From Planctomycetota bacterium (GTDB taxonomy: Bacteria > Planctomycetota > Planctomycetia > Pirellulales > PLA5), in assembly GCA_029259895.1 (NCBI GenBank), contig JAJDEG010000313.1, positions 360 to 64,359 on the forward strand: a stretch of 64,000 nt of DNA, in the 5' to 3' direction. Below the pieces are notes generated by a model. It did no database searches. It saw only the letters and a program-made list of their open reading frames with translations, and was not told the origin of the DNA. The position numbers and the translations under genes were made by a program. Positions 5,591 to 48,430 of this stretch are shown here, piece after piece. How positions within the stretch are numbered: the stretch's first letter is position 1; each line of letters begins with the position of its first letter.

Positions 5591-6661
5591 TTATGGAATC
5601 CCCCGCACGATCGACGGCCCAATTAGCCGCGTGAGCCACACCGGTAATTTCCGCCACGCGGCGATCATCGCGCGATACTTCGGATTGTCCGGACGAACGT
5701 CGTCGACTTGCCCCTGTCGCACGTAATACTGCCAAACCGCCGTCTCAGGCGCCGCGCCCCATTGCTTCTTGAATCGAAACGTGTTGCTGTCGACCGTGCT
5801 GCGCCCAAAATCGAAAACCTTGCCGCCACGATCGATGGCCCGCTGAAGCAGTTCCCAGTACATCCACATATTCGCGTTGAGAACATTGTACTCGCGCAGC
5901 GAGCTGGCGCAGGGCACTTCGGTAAAGCACTCACCATGCACGAGCAGGGCCGCAGCCACCGGCCGATCGCCGAGCCGCGCGACGCAAAACTCCGCCTGCT
6001 CGGGAAACTGCGCAAGTATCTCGCGAAACAGCCGCCGCCCAAACACCGGCGTCCCCAAGTCGCGCATGTTGCGGCTGAACACGTCGTAAAAATCGCCGAG
6101 CAACTCCCCGCCACCCCAAGCGGCGGAAAGGCCCGAACTCGCCCCCTTGCGGACCTGGTTGCGAACCTTCGGCTTGAAACTCGCCCACAGCACGTCCGAG
6201 GTCGTCGGCAGCGGCAATCGCATATGGACTTTGCTCGTTCGCGTCGCCGTCAGCGCCGGATGGTCGATTCTGGTCGCCGCCTCGTGCCGTAGCTCCAAGT
6301 ACCGAACGTCCAGCGCGTCGGCCAATTCAACGGCCTTCTCGATCAGCAACCGCGCCACCGAATCGTCCGCAGCCACGACGCCCGCCGAATTGATAAACGG
6401 CAGGCTAACGAGAAAGCGGCCAAATAGCTTCGTTCGAACGAAAACGAGCGGCAGCGTGCCGACAACCTCGCTATCCCGTTCCACGACGATCAGATAGGGC
6501 GCGTGCCCCAAACCGGCCGATACGGCCGACAGCCAGCGCTGCCGATCGTCCGTCGGCTCGGCCAGTCGTGCCGCAAGTTCCGCGCTTCGCCGAACCGCAA
6601 CGCGCACACCGCTCGCGCCGGCGGCGAGAATCGTCGAGTCGTCGACGGCGTCTTGTTTCAT
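5591..6661 (-). CDS. FemAB-family (aminoacyl-tRNA-dependent transferase-like) protein, exosortase-system-associated type
   Basis: 356 aa. Size, context and overall sequence resemble the FemAB-related PEP-CTERM-associated family (TIGR03019-like, by recollection). It sits between the HAD and carbamoyltransferase genes. Confidence 0.7.
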   Translation of the reverse strand: MKQDAVDDSTILAAGASGVRVAVRRSAELAARLAEPTDDRQRWLSAVSAGLGHAPYLIVVERDSEVVGTLPLVFVRTKLFGRFLVSLPFINSAGVVAADDSVARLLIEKAVELADALDVRYLELRHEAATRIDHPALTATRTSKVHMRLPLPTTSDVLWASFKPKVRNQVRKGASSGLSAAWGGGELLGDFYDVFSRNMRDLGTPVFGRRLFREILAQFPEQAEFCVARLGDRPVAAALLVHGECFTEVPCASSLREYNVLNANMWMYWELLQRAIDRGGKVFDFGRSTVDSNTFRFKKQWGAAPETAVWQYYVRQGQVDDVRPDNPKYRAMIAAWRKLPVWLTRLIGPSIVRGIP

Positions 6662-43772: not shown

Positions 43773-44819
43773 TCATGCGGGTGCGACGCGCTCCGTCGCG
43801 GTTTTCGACAACTGACGGACGTTTACGATTTCAACTTCTCGAAACAGGCGGGTAAGGTAAACCAAAAATAGCCAAAACAACGCCGCGGCGAACGGGATCA
43901 TCACCCAACCGGCAAAATCGTGCGTGAACTTATGTGCCGCTTCGCCGGAGACGAATCGCTGCAAAAGCGCCGTGGCGACGATCCGCGTCGAGTTGGCGAT
44001 CAACGTGATCGGCACCGCGCTGGCCAACAGCATCAACTTCTCCCACCACGCTCGGCGGGTGAACAGAACGTAGGCGAACGCCAACGCGAAGATGCCGACG
44101 AATATACGCAGGCCGGAGCAAGCTTGTGCGACCTCGAGCCGTTGATCGCCCAACAAGATCACGTTGCCCTCGGCGAGGGCCGGTTGTCCGAGCATTTGCA
44201 ACGCGGCCGTGCTGATCTTCGTCGCCGCGCCTTGCAGCGGTTGACTCAAGAACAATTCCGCGGAATACGGCAACGGAAACATGAACCACAGAAAGATGAT
44301 CGCCGGCATTGCCCAACGCGTGCAAGCCGGGCCGAAAAGCAGCAGCGCGACGCCAGTAAACCACAACGGGAGCGTCCATCCGTCAACCGCCTCGATATAA
44401 ACAAATGCGGCGGCCCAACGAATCGCCAGCGCCGCAAAAATAAACGCCCAACCCCAATGCGACGATCGCATCTGGTCGTGCGGAAACTCTCCGCGTCGCG
44501 CCCACAAAAACCAACCGGCAATGGGCAAGACCAGGTAGCCGTGCGAATAGTCCGGGATCGTTTCCCATGCGTTTACGGTCTCGGCGAGCGTCGGCCAATA
44601 CGACCACAACGCCGCGACGAGAATGGCGGCCGCCGCAGCAACGAATTGCCAACTCGTCCAACGATAGACAATCGCCGGGGCGTCGACCCGAGGCTTCTCG
44701 CGCCCTGCTTCGCCCTTGGCAGCGGCTGCAGCAGCCGTCGGCGTAAAGGACCGCGTTCTTTTTTTTGTGGCTCGCGTCAAGCTTCGATCGAACTTCGTTC
44801 TTGAATCGGTCGACGACAT
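43773..44819 (-). CDS. exosortase (EpsH/Xrt family)
   Basis: PDYSHGYLVLPIAGWFLW, the catalytic-Cys motif AQACSGLRIF, the Arg motif NSTRIVA and the His motif HDFAGW. About 55 N-terminal cytoplasmic residues contain an A8 run. Confidence 0.92.
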   Translation of the reverse strand: MSSTDSRTKFDRSLTRATKKRTRSFTPTAAAAAAKGEAGREKPRVDAPAIVYRWTSWQFVAAAAAILVAALWSYWPTLAETVNAWETIPDYSHGYLVLPIAGWFLWARRGEFPHDQMRSSHWGWAFIFAALAIRWAAAFVYIEAVDGWTLPLWFTGVALLLFGPACTRWAMPAIIFLWFMFPLPYSAELFLSQPLQGAATKISTAALQMLGQPALAEGNVILLGDQRLEVAQACSGLRIFVGIFALAFAYVLFTRRAWWEKLMLLASAVPITLIANSTRIVATALLQRFVSGEAAHKFTHDFAGWVMIPFAAALFWLFLVYLTRLFREVEIVNVRQLSKTATERVAPA

Positions 44820-45608
44820 CGACCAGAGCGGTCGGCGCGCACTCCGTTCTTGTCGGTTGCGGCTAACCGAAGCGTCGGTGAGTGTGATCTTCTAATGCGT
44901 AGCAGTCTTGGACGCGCCGCGATCGACTTCGTCACTAGCGATCTCGGTCCCTGGCAAACACGCCGGGGACAACGCGCAAAACGCAAAGTGAAATGCGTAT
45001 CGCGCGAACCAAAAGCGACGTCGCGGCAACCGTCGCAACGAGCAGCGTCCAACCAATCGGCCACCACCGCCCAAGCGACAACGTTGACGTTTATCGTAGT
45101 CGATGGCCCCTCAGCGTCAAGCGATTGCACCTTTCGCCGCGCAAAATCTCGCCCGATTCCGACAGCCGAATCGCATTCCTTGACGGACGTGAGGGTCGTG
45201 CGGGTCGCGCCGCCGTTCGAGCAGCGCGGGTGGAGCGAATTATTCGCGTCGCGTCGCTTGCATTACGCGATTGTCGCGACTAGTATCAACGTCAGTTGGC
45301 GTTCGGCGCATAGACGGCGTCGCCATCGCCCCGAGCGGCCGTCCGATGGCGGGCGAAAACGAATCGGTTTGCGGCTTGTGAAGCGTTTTCTTTGGCTTCG
45401 CGGCGCGGAAACCGAGGGGAACGGAGTGCGTTCGCACGTCGCCTTCTTCGCTCGATACGGCACCGACCTCGCCGCCCTATCGCAAGGCTCCGCCGCAATA
45501 TTTCCGCACAGGCTTGCGCACGTTTCGCCCACACGGTGGACCATTCGCGGCCGGCGGTCTGCCGCGACGCTTGAATTCTCGAGTTTGCAGCTTTTGGCAG
45601 CTTTGACT
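44820..45608. promoter_or_regulatory. long divergent intergenic/control region between the exosortase and the sigma-like gene
   Basis: About 790 bp with no credible coding signal. The in-frame translation is Arg-rich nonsense and G+C is lower. Direct repeat GCAGCTTT at 45587-45594 and 45597-45604 (10-bp period) lies just before the probable sigma start. Confidence 0.4.
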
Positions 45609-46697
45609 GTGGCACCAAAGAAGACACCGAAGAAGACAACGAAGAAGAAGGCGAAAGCAGCGTCGCGCTCGCCCGCTTCCAAGCGAATGGCTTCAACGCC
45701 AATCACCGTGCCGGCGGCCGCCAAGCGCGTCCGCAAACGTGCCGCGGCGGTGTCCGAAAACGGCAAGCCCGCTCGCGCCGCCACGCCAGAGCCTACCGAC
45801 GGCGACTCGCAATCGACGGCCAAGGCCAAGAAAACCCCGAAAAGCAACGGCGTCGCGAAGAAAGTCCGCGCCAGCACGAACGGACGCCAGACCTCCGGAC
45901 GCCAAGCCTCGAAGAAGACCAAAACGCCCACCAAATCGAAGCCAACCGCCCGCAAAACAGCCGCCCGCAAAACAGCCGCCCGAATGCCCGAATCCCGAAT
46001 CCCGAATCCCGAATCCCGCTCCCACACGCCCGCGTCAGACCGCCTCCTCGTCGACCGTGCCCTAACCGGCCAGAGCGGTGCCTGGGATGCCCTCTACGAA
46101 CGCTGCCATCAGCCCCTGCTGGCCGCCATCCGCGCGATCATCGCCAACAGGGCCGCAGACCCGAATCTCATCGACGAACTGGCCGCCCGGGTCTGGTACG
46201 CGGTCGTCCGCGACGAGGGAAAGCTCCTCAATCGCTTCGACCCCAGCCGGGCCTGCTCGCTGACCACCTATTTGGCACTGCTAGCCAAAGACGAAGCGTC
46301 GCGCCTCTTCCGCTCCGAACGCCGCCGCCGCCGCCGAGAAACGGCCGTAGCCACCTCCGACCGCAAAACGCCCAAAAAATCCACAGCCGCCCAAACATCG
46401 GCCCGCATCACGCTCGCCGAGTTCGCCGCAACGCTAACCCCTGCCGAGAAAACGTTTTACGAAGAAATCGTAGTCCCCACCGGCCAAGCCAAAAACGGCA
46501 ACGGCAGCCAGAACGGCACAGACAAAGCCAGCAGCACGGGCGATGCTAACGGCACGGGCGATGCTAGCGGCACGGACAAAGCCAACGGCACCGAAAAATC
46601 CAACGGCACAGCCCACTCCAAAGGCCGCTCTCAAGCCAACGAGTGGCAACTAAACCACCGCGTCCGGCGAAAGCTGGAAAGATTCTTAACCGGCTGA
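45609..46697 (+). CDS. ECF-type sigma-70 family protein with Lys/Ala/Pro/Thr-rich N-terminal domain
   Basis: Region-2-like segment: WDALYERCHQPLLAAIRAII...LIDELAARVWYAVVRDEGKLLNRFDPSRACSLTTYLALLAKDEASRLFRSERRRR. Region-4-like end: EWQLNHRVRRKLERFL. The start is uncertain: GTG 45609 (MAPKKTPKKTTKKKAKAA...), ATG 45687 or ATG 45984. The ORF-track start at 44850 is not credible. Confidence 0.55.
   Translation: MAPKKTPKKTTKKKAKAASRSPASKRMASTPITVPAAAKRVRKRAAAVSENGKPARAATPEPTDGDSQSTAKAKKTPKSNGVAKKVRASTNGRQTSGRQASKKTKTPTKSKPTARKTAARKTAARMPESRIPNPESRSHTPASDRLLVDRALTGQSGAWDALYERCHQPLLAAIRAIIANRAADPNLIDELAARVWYAVVRDEGKLLNRFDPSRACSLTTYLALLAKDEASRLFRSERRRRRRETAVATSDRKTPKKSTAAQTSARITLAEFAATLTPAEKTFYEEIVVPTGQAKNGNGSQNGTDKASSTGDANGTGDASGTDKANGTEKSNGTAHSKGRSQANEWQLNHRVRRKLERFLTG
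45946..46018 (+). repeat. compound microsatellite: 15-mer CCGCCCGCAAAACAG x2.5, then heptamer CCCGAAT x5.6
   Basis: The 15-mer lies at 45946-45960 and 45961-45975, with a partial copy at 45976-45983. One heptamer lies at 45979-45985, then a single G, then four perfect contiguous heptamers at 45987-46014 plus CCCG to 46018. Confidence 0.95.
46538..46609 (+). repeat. 18-nt in-frame tandem repeat x4 (encodes GDANGT/GDASGT/DKANGT/EKSNGT)
   Basis: gggcgatgctaacggcac / gggcgatgctagcggcac / ggacaaagccaacggcac / cgaaaaatccaacggcac, read directly. It lies inside the sigma-like CDS between the region 2 and region 4 segments. Confidence 0.85.
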
Positions 46698-46706
46698 ACC
46701 GCCCCA

Positions 46707-46727
46707 GTAGGGTGGGCTATGCCCACC
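46707..46727 (+). repeat. REP-like palindromic element, copy A
   Basis: GTAGGGTGGGCtatGCCCACC, a perfect 7-bp stem with a 3-nt loop, 10 nt after the sigma-gene stop. It translates as VGIAHPT on the opposite strand. Confidence 0.8.
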
Positions 46728-47024
46728 GTCGGTTCCATTCTCATCCCGGTTCGCCCCGCCGCAGCGCTCGGTTTCCCGTTCACCGAACCACGGGAAGCGG
46801 CCAACTTGGCAATTCTTCGGCGGCTTTTGCTCGGCAGGGTACACCCCACCCGACTCGGCTCCAAGCCCCCGAACCCAGCCCATCAAGCAAATTCCAAAAA
46901 CAACGAATTTAACCCCGCAAAAAACGCGAGTAATGCTCACAAATTCCCTCTTCCGAGCGGTCCCATCAACCGCTCCGGGCACCAACCCCCCTCTCCATTG
47001 CTGCTTCGCCGTGTGAGCACGATA

Positions 47025-47056
47025 CTCCAGGTTCCAGCAACTCCAGATTCCAGCAA
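47025..47056 (+). repeat. 16-nt tandem duplication CTCCAG(G/A)TTCCAGCAA x2
   Basis: Read directly at 47025-47040 and 47041-47056, with one mismatch. Confidence 0.8.
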
Positions 47057-47196
47057 AATCAGTCACAATGCGAAAACTCCCGGCCCCGCGAACTTGGTCC
47101 CGCGCTCCGAACCCCGCCCCCCTCACGCACAACCTACCAAATCCCCAGCCCAATTTCCACCAAAAAACAAGCCAATCCTCGCCATCTCCTAGCCAC

Positions 47197-47219
47197 GTAG
47201 CGTAGGCTGTGCCCGCCAC
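47197..47219 (+). repeat. REP-like palindromic element, degenerate copy B
   Basis: GTAGCGTAGGCtgtGCCCGCCAC, in the same orientation as copy A, with the stem degraded by 2 mismatches. Confidence 0.55.
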
Positions 47220-47331
47220 GGCGTCCTAGCAAAAGTCACTCGGATTCGCCAAATCCCTCGACATTCTGCGCCCTACAAGCAAGAATCAGCCGCCCTGGTC
47301 TAAGGATAAAATTGGTCGAAATGGAATCAAA

Positions 47332-47352
47332 GGTGGGCACAGCCCACCCTAC
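47332..47352 (-). repeat. REP-like palindromic element, copy C (inverted relative to A)
   Basis: GGTGGGCacaGCCCACCCTAC. Its reverse complement GTAGGGTGGGCtgtGCCCACC differs from copy A by one loop base. The flanks also match (CCCCAG..GTAG upstream, GATTCCATT downstream). Confidence 0.8.
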
Positions 47353-47530
47353 TTGGCTTGGCTGGGGAGAATCTTCGGGACCGACATTTTCGACGAGCCT
47401 GAGATTTTGCGATATTCCGGCCGTCAGCCTGTCAGGATCGCGGCGTTTGCGGCACATAACGAACAGAAGCCATTGTGGATTGGCTGAAATACCGAATCTT
47501 GACTCCTGGTGCTCTTAGGATTTATCGACC

Positions 47531-48430
47531 ATGAAGAAACTATCTTTTGCTTTGGCCCTTTTGATTGCAGCCGTGGCTGGCAAACCGGCCTCTGCGGCAC
47601 TGACATTCACAAATTCGATCGTGAACGGGTTCAATACGTATCAGGATCAGTCGTTTGACCTGATCGCCGACAACGGCGACGGCGTGTTTAGCGTCGGCGA
47701 TGTGCTTTACGGTTTTGCTGTTTTAGACGACCGTACGTTCCCGCCATCTGGTGGTTTGGTTGTGGACTCAACCTACATGGTTTTCTCGCAGCAAGTATCG
47801 GCGATCGGTGTGCCAACCATTTTGGGTACTACGGTATCCTTTGCACCAACGACGGTAGCTGGCTTAACGTTGAGCAGCCTTACGGGAGGGGCTTCAACGG
47901 ACCCTGGGGCTATTTTCGCAATTTTTGAAAAACCTGCAGGCTTTGGCGACCTTATTAACAATGGTGCCGGCGTTCCCGCAAATATTGCGACGATCATTGG
48001 CGGAAGCTTCACGGCCAGCGCTGGCTTTGGTACGGCGACTAGCGAAGCGGACGATTTCTTCACGGCAGTGGTGATTAATCCGGGGGCGTTTACGTTGGCA
48101 ACCGTGCTTTCGAACGGCGAGCAAGTTGGCTCTTTCACGGCGGGTTTGACGATCCTTGAGCAGCCTGGGTTGCCATCTGTGATTTTCAACGAGCTTGTTG
48201 TCGCTATTAATCCAGGTTCTGCGGGTTCGTTGCACGAACTGTCCATCAGCGAAGGTGGGATCTCGGGCGTTGGAAATGCTCCAACTTCTCCCTCGCCGTA
48301 CTCCTACGGTGACCAGTTGAAGGCGACGATTCACGCGACCGTCATTCCGGAACCGACTTCCATGTTGGCATGGATGGGTTTGGCGTGCTGCTCGTTGCTC
48401 GTCGTCCGTCGACGCCGCAAGTCGGCCTAG
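47531..48430 (+). CDS. PEP-CTERM sorting-domain protein (exosortase substrate)
   Basis: Signal peptide MKKLSFALALLIAAVAGKPASA. C-terminal VIPEPTSMLAWMGLACCSLLVVRRRRKSA comprises the PEP motif, a TM helix and an Arg cluster. Confidence 0.92.
   Translation: MKKLSFALALLIAAVAGKPASAALTFTNSIVNGFNTYQDQSFDLIADNGDGVFSVGDVLYGFAVLDDRTFPPSGGLVVDSTYMVFSQQVSAIGVPTILGTTVSFAPTTVAGLTLSSLTGGASTDPGAIFAIFEKPAGFGDLINNGAGVPANIATIIGGSFTASAGFGTATSEADDFFTAVVINPGAFTLATVLSNGEQVGSFTAGLTILEQPGLPSVIFNELVVAINPGSAGSLHELSISEGGISGVGNAPTSPSPYSYGDQLKATIHATVIPEPTSMLAWMGLACCSLLVVRRRRKSA

Follow-up and report, generated by a model that had tools for sequence, protein, structure and literature searches.

An in-frame CCCGAAT heptamer array in the predicted ECF-like sigma factor gene beside an exosortase gene of a Pirellulales planctomycete

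Dispersed tandem heptanucleotide repeats, some of them intragenic, are known from cyanobacteria such as Calothrix and Nostoc as short tandemly repeated repetitive (STRR) sequences. This study concerns an array of the heptamer CCCGAAT located in a gene for a predicted sigma factor of the extracytoplasmic function (ECF) type, which is divergent from an exosortase gene in a planctomycete of the order Pirellulales. The stretch analysed, referred to as the window, comprises 64,000 nt (positions 360 to 64,359, forward strand, of contig JAJDEG010000313.1, assembly GCA_029259895.1), and all coordinates are positions in it. The array differs from the STRR repeats, which are also mentioned in PMC4692102, in unit sequence and in lineage.

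A related class of heptamers was described by Rehm et al. (2015; PLoS One, PMC4692102), and consists of GGGAATC and heterogeneous (GGGANTN)n repeats in Xanthomonas and of GGGGA(C/T)T in Nostoc. Members of this class occur at dispersed, for the most part intergenic sites (with 7-11% inside genes in Xanthomonas), prefer positions at most 50 bp upstream of open reading frames (ORFs) with the G-rich strand antisense, and were kept in place between Xcc and Xac in 83% of cases. A preference for four units was reported, (GGGAATC)3GGG formed a G-quadruplex (G4) in vitro with a T1/2 of 50.4 °C in K+, and phase variation was thought unlikely by the authors. A second point of comparison is provided by contingency loci, including Neisseria pglE, which carries an intragenic heptanucleotide repeat switch (PMC7157529), and opa, which carries a pentamer repeat. 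A first-pass annotation of the window had proposed that the array is such a switch, acting on the sigma factor and possibly, through it, on the exosortase/exopolysaccharide (EPS) programme.

The elements of the array and its immediate surroundings, as seen in the sequence and with Tandem Repeats Finder (TRF), are as follows.

45946..45982, plus strand: in-frame 15-mer present 2.5 times, in a basic patch before the array; orthologues have KRAKRA-type basic patches there
45979..45985, plus strand: first CCCGAAT unit (sequence and TRF)
45984..45986, plus strand: in-frame ATG resulting from an extra G; specific to the window, with no start codon at this place in any orthologue
45987..46018, plus strand: four CCCGAAT units followed by CCCG
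46015..46037, plus strand: degenerate heptamer-phased tail, finishing the linker before the conserved core

The first unit is fused with the 3' end of the preceding 15-mer repeat (CCGCCCGCAAAACAG, which encodes ARKTA repeats), and a single G at 45986 stands between it and the four perfect contiguous units at 45987-46014, which are followed by the partial unit. TRF assigned the tract (45979-46018) a period of 7, 5.6 copies and 96% matches, the figure of 5.6 including the interrupted and partial units. This layout, the ATG created by the G and the upstream 15-mer had all been reported in the first-pass annotation, and each was confirmed. On the plus strand, 45987-46018 translates as PESRIPNPES(R), and the minus (template) strand reads (GGGATTC)n. 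The CCCGAAT tract is real and far beyond chance: its perfect period-7 run extended over 25 positions, compared with a mean of 8.5 and a maximum of 12 in 200 Markov-1 simulations of the window. It was also the sole period-7 array in the 64 kb. Degenerate heptamer phasing (CCCGCTC CCACACG CCCGCGT, 46015-46037) continues from the array to the first conserved codon at 46038.

The gene that contains the tract has the following extent.

45609..46697, plus strand: coding sequence of the predicted ECF-like sigma factor, with a disordered, Lys-rich extension at the N-terminus, followed by the heptamer linker, sigma-2 and a split sigma-4-like C-terminus
46038..46697, plus strand: conserved core of the family, DRLLVDRAL...RRKLERFLTG

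The sigma frame reads across the tract as ...ARKTAARKTAARMPESRIPNPESRSHTPAS-DRLLVDRAL... and, in its longer form, as ...ARKTAARKTAARMPESRIPNPESRSHTPAS-DRLLVDRALTGQSGAWDALYERCH... Every in-frame ATG, GTG or TTG codon lies at or 5' of 45984, and neither the window nor any orthologue has one between the array and the invariant core. In the orthologues the candidate starts closest to the core were located 62 (L001), 41 (L002), 40 (L004), 29 (L005) and 63 (L006) codons 5' of the core, in each case 5' of the array; the ATG at -18 codons is found in the window only and is the product of the extra G. The G+C content of third codon positions (GC3) in the sigma frame was 0.74-0.79 across 45609-45983 and 0.75-0.80 in the core, compared with a flat 0.63 farther upstream, and this coding pattern was repeated in six orthologues. 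In an alignment of 22 homologues the tract ended 6 codons before the conserved DRxL(I/V)DRAL, and distant relatives require at least 36-47 residues ahead of the core. On this sequence evidence the heptamer tract is predicted to be translated, near the N-terminus of the protein. The gene probably starts at GTG 45609 or ATG 45687, and ATG 45984 is a possible start. The public NCBI gene call (P0001, 600 aa), for which an exact look-up returned no record, reaches into 44850-45608, far 5' of coding-type GC3; it was judged over-extended, translation more probably beginning at 45609 or 3' of it.

The number of units determines the reading frame of all that follows. In simulated arrays the full-length protein was retained with 1, 4 or 7 units, 3 or 6 units led to a stop at 46063, and 2, 5 or 8 units led to a stop at 46547. 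Since 7 shares no factor with 3, the cyclic heptapeptide PESRIPN results in whichever frame the array is read, and only the total length modulo 3 counts. The tract thus resembles a contingency locus in that its unit is not divisible by 3, lies inside the coding sequence and sets the frame through its copy number. Several statements of the first-pass annotation were upheld here: the tract is 5' of sigma region 2 and 3' of every candidate start, and a change of one unit shifts the frame. Such a change destroys the sigma domains, whether by the stop at 46063 (loss) or that at 46547 (gain). The TAA at 46063-46065 that it had pointed out is present, in the frame that is entered by the loss of one unit.

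Orthologous loci were compared, as the first-pass annotation had advised, and the repeats were present as DNA in six Pirellulales lineages, with no synonymous differences in the shared PESRIPNP codons. In L001, the closest relative, the array has decayed to CTCGAAT CCCGAAC CCCGAAT TTCGAAT, and its three variant units each change an amino acid. L006 carries (CCCGAAT)4 followed by CCCG, and L005 carries (CCCGAAT)3 and CCCG, followed by about 4 CCCCGAC/CCCTGAC units. In L002, L003 and L210 the linker contains CCCGAAT CCCGATT (CCCGAAT)2 and then about 5 CCYGACC units, and in L004 it contains about 13 GACCCCY units, which encode PDPRPLT four times. CCCGAAT units thus number 3, 4, 4 and 4 (degenerate) in the orthologues, and are accompanied or replaced by about 4-13 units of CCYGACC. 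In all six array-bearing lineages the interval from the KRAKRA-type basic patch to the DRxL anchor consists of continuous 7-nt-phased C-tracts; at this shared linker site the units vary in number and in sequence, and the reading frame is kept in every copy.

In a seventh close lineage (L007-L009) the gene is intact and has no array. In a census of 89 family loci, the arrays were confined to a sub-clade with core identities of 66-74% by tblastn and were absent in about 80 relatives with core identities of 32-55%. The array is dispensable, since it is decayed in L001 and missing in L007-L009 and in these distant relatives. Core codons encoding the same amino acid were 45-55% identical between the window and L002, L004, L005 and L006 (77% for L001). 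The shared PESRIPNP codons were 100% identical between lineages, and such differences as exist change the amino acid. This codon identity points to constraint or homogenisation at the level of the DNA, and not of the peptide.

By its sequence the tract fits the C3N4/G3N4 heptamer class, (GGGANTN)n. The minus-strand unit GGGATTC has the G3 tract, the A at position 4 and the T at position 6, and the number of units is close to four (4 perfect units in the window and 3, 4, 4 and 4 in orthologues). As in the heptamers of Xanthomonas and Nostoc (PMC4692102), the G-rich strand is antisense, which is the orientation preferred by the class, the arrays are mixed and orthologous sites are conserved; copies are probably dispersed too, with one in the 64-kb window and extra ones in sibling metagenome-assembled genomes (MAGs). 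The class tends to be intergenic and at most 50 bp upstream of an ORF, whereas the window copy lies inside a coding sequence and is predicted to be translated. The loop also differs (ATTC compared with AATC), the published G4 datum is for GGGAATC, and the host belongs to the Pirellulales, planctomycetes outside the scope of that study. The repeat class itself was already known, and the novelty lies in the lineage and in the unusual location inside a gene.

A scan of one genome per species found (CCCGAAT)n with n of at least 3 in at least 120 genome stretches from many phyla. The hosts among the matches listed included Lysobacterales/Xanthomonas/Stenotrophomonas, Acidobacteriota, Planctomycetota, Bacteroidota, Nostoc and others, and the flanks of these matches contained mixed arrays with CCCCAAT, CCCGACT, CCCGAGT, CCCGGAT, CCCGATT (equivalent to GGGAATC), CACGAAT and other units. 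The MAGs of the sigma orthologues L001 and L005 had extra CCCGAAT arrays at other loci (L020; L041 and L053). In these arrays the C-rich strand is the sense strand and an ATG follows after 7-35 nt; that of L041, for instance, preceded a PepF-like gene. Among the matches listed, an ORF start (ORFs of at least 100 aa) was found within 80 nt on the C-rich-sense side of 57 of 106 arrays and on the other side of 31, although this count is a crude measure and the sorting of genic from intergenic positions by open frames is unreliable in GC-rich genomes. A literature search with the heptamer strings returned only primer noise.

One of these arrays lies in an unrelated coding sequence. In an Acidobacteriota MAG (L038, CAVOWJ010000005.1) (CCCGAAT)3 was found at 6184-6204 inside the ORF of a Ser/Thr protein kinase. 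It is in frame there and encodes PNPESRIP, in a loop of the folded protein flanked by ...IYGIGEEAL and FLVMELVEG. This kinase loop indicates that coding sequence can tolerate such arrays. Many contigs that start or end within CCCGAAT-type arrays were also seen (L014, L019, L025, L048, L062, L074, L096, L101 and L120), that of L062 showing as many as 19 units. Short-read assemblies are apparently broken by long arrays, whose lengths and numbers are therefore under-counted in MAGs.

The reading that we favour, with a confidence somewhat above even, is that the array is a microsatellite of the heptamer class, born by slippage and tolerated as filler in a disordered linker of the exosortase-linked ECF-like sigma factor. 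It builds on the directly observed anatomy, coding status, class membership by sequence, orthologous persistence and all-ON state of the array. The array would have arisen in the ancestor of a Pirellulales sub-clade, and replication slippage would keep it going by the gain, loss and homogenisation of units, with decay by point mutation in some lineages. It would be translated as a filler peptide in the proline-rich disordered linker, and would be neutral and tolerated because this linker has no structural role, provided that the frame is kept. Single-unit slips would produce null alleles, through the stops at 46063 or 46547, which are apparently purged or compensated rather than used; the extra G specific to the window may be a trace of such compensation. 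The tract would then be a mutational weak point in a regulator gene and not a demonstrated programmed switch, a description that we hold to be right by a little better than an even chance.

Some observations weigh against this account. A neutral microsatellite of 3-5 units would not be expected to keep one unit across lineages in which about half of the synonymous sites have turned over, and this high conservation of the unit at the DNA level is the feature that the account explains least well. Given this persistence of the unit, some selection on the DNA, for mutability or structure, may be at work. In addition, contingency repeats classically occupy the kind of site seen here, immediately ahead of the functional domains of a surface-polysaccharide regulator. 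The array might have been kept by selection as a regulatory device in the coding leader, whether as a slippage ON/OFF switch, a G4 brake on the template strand, or both, but we regard this as doubtful.

The alternative that survived best, although it is itself rather unlikely, is that the template-strand (GGGATTC)n forms a G4, or the sense strand an i-motif or C-rich RNA element, which modulates transcription elongation, R-loops or translation for the sigma gene, the C-tract periodicity and not the peptide being selected. Eight G-runs are present on the minus (template) strand over 45979-46031, and the tract is the longest of just 5 canonical (G3+N1-7)x4 motifs in the 64 kb. The 7-nt-phased C-tract is common to orthologues with different units (CCCGAAT compared with CCYGACC), and the sense strand of 6 of 6 array-bearing lineages has a canonical (C3+N1-7)x4 motif, compared with about 3 of 80 distant relatives. 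The clustering of perfect units at 3-4 is similar to the four-unit preference of the class, the orientation (G-rich strand antisense, just 5' of the functional start) agrees with the class preference, and the related (GGGAATC)3GGG is the sequence that folds in vitro (PMC4692102). That measurement, however, concerns GGGAATC and not GGGATTC, and even the class as a whole has no known function in vivo. The G4Hunter score of the tract was an unexceptional 1.44, in a window of 61% GC in which 53 regions reach 1.2, and the probability given to this reading was lowered because G4Hunter did not single the tract out. The gquad option of ViennaRNA placed a G4 in the minimum free energy structure by only about 1 kcal/mol, L007-L009 are without any such motif, and the C-tracts are also plain proline codons in a Pro-rich linker.

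Unlikely too is the proposal of the first-pass annotation, that slipped-strand mispairing switches the sigma factor from a full-length to a truncated form and back, and the exosortase/EPS programme with it. The tract shares with contingency loci such as pglE (PMC7157529), a precedent for an intragenic heptanucleotide switch, and the opa pentamer repeat a unit length that 3 does not divide, a position near the 5' end of the coding sequence (here just 5' of sigma-2), truncation by a one-unit change and a link to surface glycan or polysaccharide. The variation in unit numbers between lineages shows that slippage has occurred, perfect units persist in several lineages despite a turnover of about 50% of codons elsewhere, as if mutability were selected, and the linkage of sigma factor and exosortase is conserved. 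The tract differs from these loci in being short, with just 4 contiguous perfect units, in the free-living, environmental habit of its host and in belonging to a repeat family mostly found with non-surface genes. The array is also decayed in L001 and absent in L007-L009 with the gene intact, and the members of the class are mostly located beside housekeeping genes and were judged unlikely to be phase variable by their describers (PMC4692102).

No ON/OFF polymorphism was seen among close relatives. All 11 assemblies of 7 close lineages were ON, with no OFF allele or length variant in these or in the protein database, but the assemblies were few and are consensus sequences in which rare variants are invisible and low-frequency slippage would escape. 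In one population (that of L002) the array length was identical in four samples (SRR22840551, SRR22840552, SRR22840554 and one more), which differed only in the start-codon call. The protein cluster of the window protein had a single member, with no in-frame length variants, and P0038 is an identical sequence for which a different start was called. A search of 5.8 billion proteins returned no homologue of the 177-aa product that results from the gain of one unit. A literature search on phase variation in Planctomycetes returned nothing relevant. At the level of sequence comparison the inference of a switch is unsupported, though not refuted.

It is very unlikely that PESRIPNPES is a functional, conserved short linear motif, serving for example in docking or in the control of the sigma factor by proteolysis, to which the DNA repeat is incidental. 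PESR(I/F)PNP(ES) does recur in P0003, P0005, P0006 and the window, but its shared codons have no synonymous differences, compared with the 45-55% identity of core codons, and the changes observed alter the residue (I to F, P to L, I to T and P to F). Furthermore, L004 has PDPRPLT repeats instead, L007-L009 are without the motif, and the unrelated kinase loop has the identical peptide purely through the identical DNA repeat. The peptide motif was rejected because of the codon pattern. That the tract is untranslated, with the true start 3' of 46018 and the array a 5'-untranslated element as at other loci, is least probable of all and close to negligible, for although CCCGAAT arrays in sibling genomes typically lie 7-35 nt upstream of an ATG, a start downstream of the tract was rejected because of the missing start codons and a GC3 coding signal that runs more than 100 codons upstream, and the residues required ahead of the core by distant relatives stand equally against it.

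The protein itself was only weakly recognised by sequence models. Pfam Sigma70_r2 matched it with 19.2 bits, below the cut-off of 24, although several homologues do carry PF04542; the NCBIfam matches were generic for ECF factors and weak, no region-4 model in Pfam or NCBIfam matched, and a family profile had zero matches among PDB sequences. An AlphaFold2 model built from 37 homologues had a mean predicted local distance difference test (pLDDT) score of 77.6, with more than 90 in the core and low values in the N-terminal residues covering the array (mean of 53 for residues 1-10). The top 24 Foldseek matches of this model were sigma factors, except for one RNA-polymerase model that contains RpoC, and region 2 of Escherichia coli sigmaE superposed on it with a TM-score of 0.71-0.76 and a root-mean-square deviation (rmsd) of 2.6-2.8 Å. 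Because of these Foldseek matches and this superposition, the protein is predicted to be a divergent ECF-like sigma factor. Full-length ECF structures aligned only loosely (rmsd of 12-19 Å), and the predicted C-terminal helices 144-163 and 217-236, which resemble region 4, are set apart by a disordered insert.

Compared with ECF (group 4) sigma-70 factors such as E. coli sigmaE and Mycobacterium tuberculosis SigK, the window protein has in common the defining region 2, in the form of a predicted sigma-2 fold and weak Sigma70_r2 and NCBIfam ECF matches, and possibly the region-4-like helices. It differs in that its matches are under curated cut-offs and include no region-4 model, in the disordered insert of about 50 aa in the sigma-4-like part, in the long basic N-terminal extension and, as a family, in the specific linkage to exosortase genes, and no anti-sigma factor was found for it. 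The N-terminal extension (about 100-140 residues) is lysine-rich, and the array is located in the linker between it and sigma-2. Four further slippage-type repeats, all in frame, were detected in the gene by TRF (a 12-mer present 3 times, 15-mers present 2 and 2.5 times, and an 18-mer present 5.4 times), the last of which is in the insert.

46512..46609, plus strand: in-frame 18-nt repeat present 5.4 times in the disordered insert of the sigma-4-like region

Both variable parts were also inspected in the orthologues. The extension (45609-45983) is rich in lysine, alanine and proline, similar to a histone H1 tail, and contains the 12-mer (45613-45648) and the two 15-mers (45881-45910 and 45946-45982); the extensions of orthologues have a similar composition, rich in K and NG, and are unalignable. 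The sigma-4-like C-terminus (46400-46640) is split by the low-complexity insert, with a pLDDT below 50 and an NGTDKA-like repeat, and the inserts of orthologues at this site vary in length and sequence.

The gene divergent from that of the sigma factor heads a large cluster.

43773..44819, minus strand: divergent exosortase gene (Pfam, E=9e-60), head of the minus-strand EPS cluster (906-44819)

The co-directional genes of this cluster encode a tyrosine-autokinase-like protein, a tetratricopeptide repeat protein, GT1 and GT4 glycosyltransferases, Wzy_C, two AsnB-type amidotransferases and one carbamoyltransferase. The pairing of sigma factor and exosortase was kept in every close orthologue, and an exosortase gene adjoined the sigma core, in divergent or co-directional orientation, at 38 of the 90 loci of the family, some of them distant, a count in which many of the remaining loci were on contigs too short to judge. 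No curated Pfam or NCBIfam model scored above its cut-off for the family (window 45609-46697 and loci L130-L209). To judge from its sequences, it looks like an undescribed family of exosortase-associated ECF-like sigma factors, and control of the exosortase/EPS cluster by the sigma factor, as proposed in the first-pass annotation, is plausible.

Downstream of the sigma gene a 299-aa ORF (47531-48430) had no Pfam match, and was marginally similar (24% identity, E=4e-8) to a conserved gene (about 310-355 aa, likewise lacking a Pfam match) located after that of the sigma factor in orthologous loci. This conserved gene could encode a partner of the sigma factor, such as an anti-sigma factor. The gene-poor, C-rich stretch of about 830 nt from the sigma stop codon to this ORF contains palindromes similar to repetitive extragenic palindromic (REP) elements, GTAGGGTGGGC-N3-GCCCACC(CTAC), at 46707-46733, 47198-47220 and 47329-47351, two of them good and one degenerate. 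The first, 10 nt past the stop codon, could be a terminator hairpin. An Rfam scan of 44700-48200 at E<=1 returned zero RNA families, and a scan for promoters and terminators returned nothing informative near the tract.

These results indicate that the heptamer class of Xanthomonas and Nostoc is far wider, extending to Planctomycetota, Acidobacteriota, Bacteroidota and others, and that heptamer repeats can enter proteins as disordered filler. They also flag an uncharacterised family of exosortase-linked sigma factors. If the array were, after all, a selected device, neither a sigma factor nor an EPS/exosortase programme of Planctomycetota would have been under contingency-type control in any earlier case, and the device would provide a function for one member of the enigmatic C3N4 heptamer class. 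That minority reading, if true, would also offer a simple, testable handle on EPS and biofilm variation within populations of planctomycetes.

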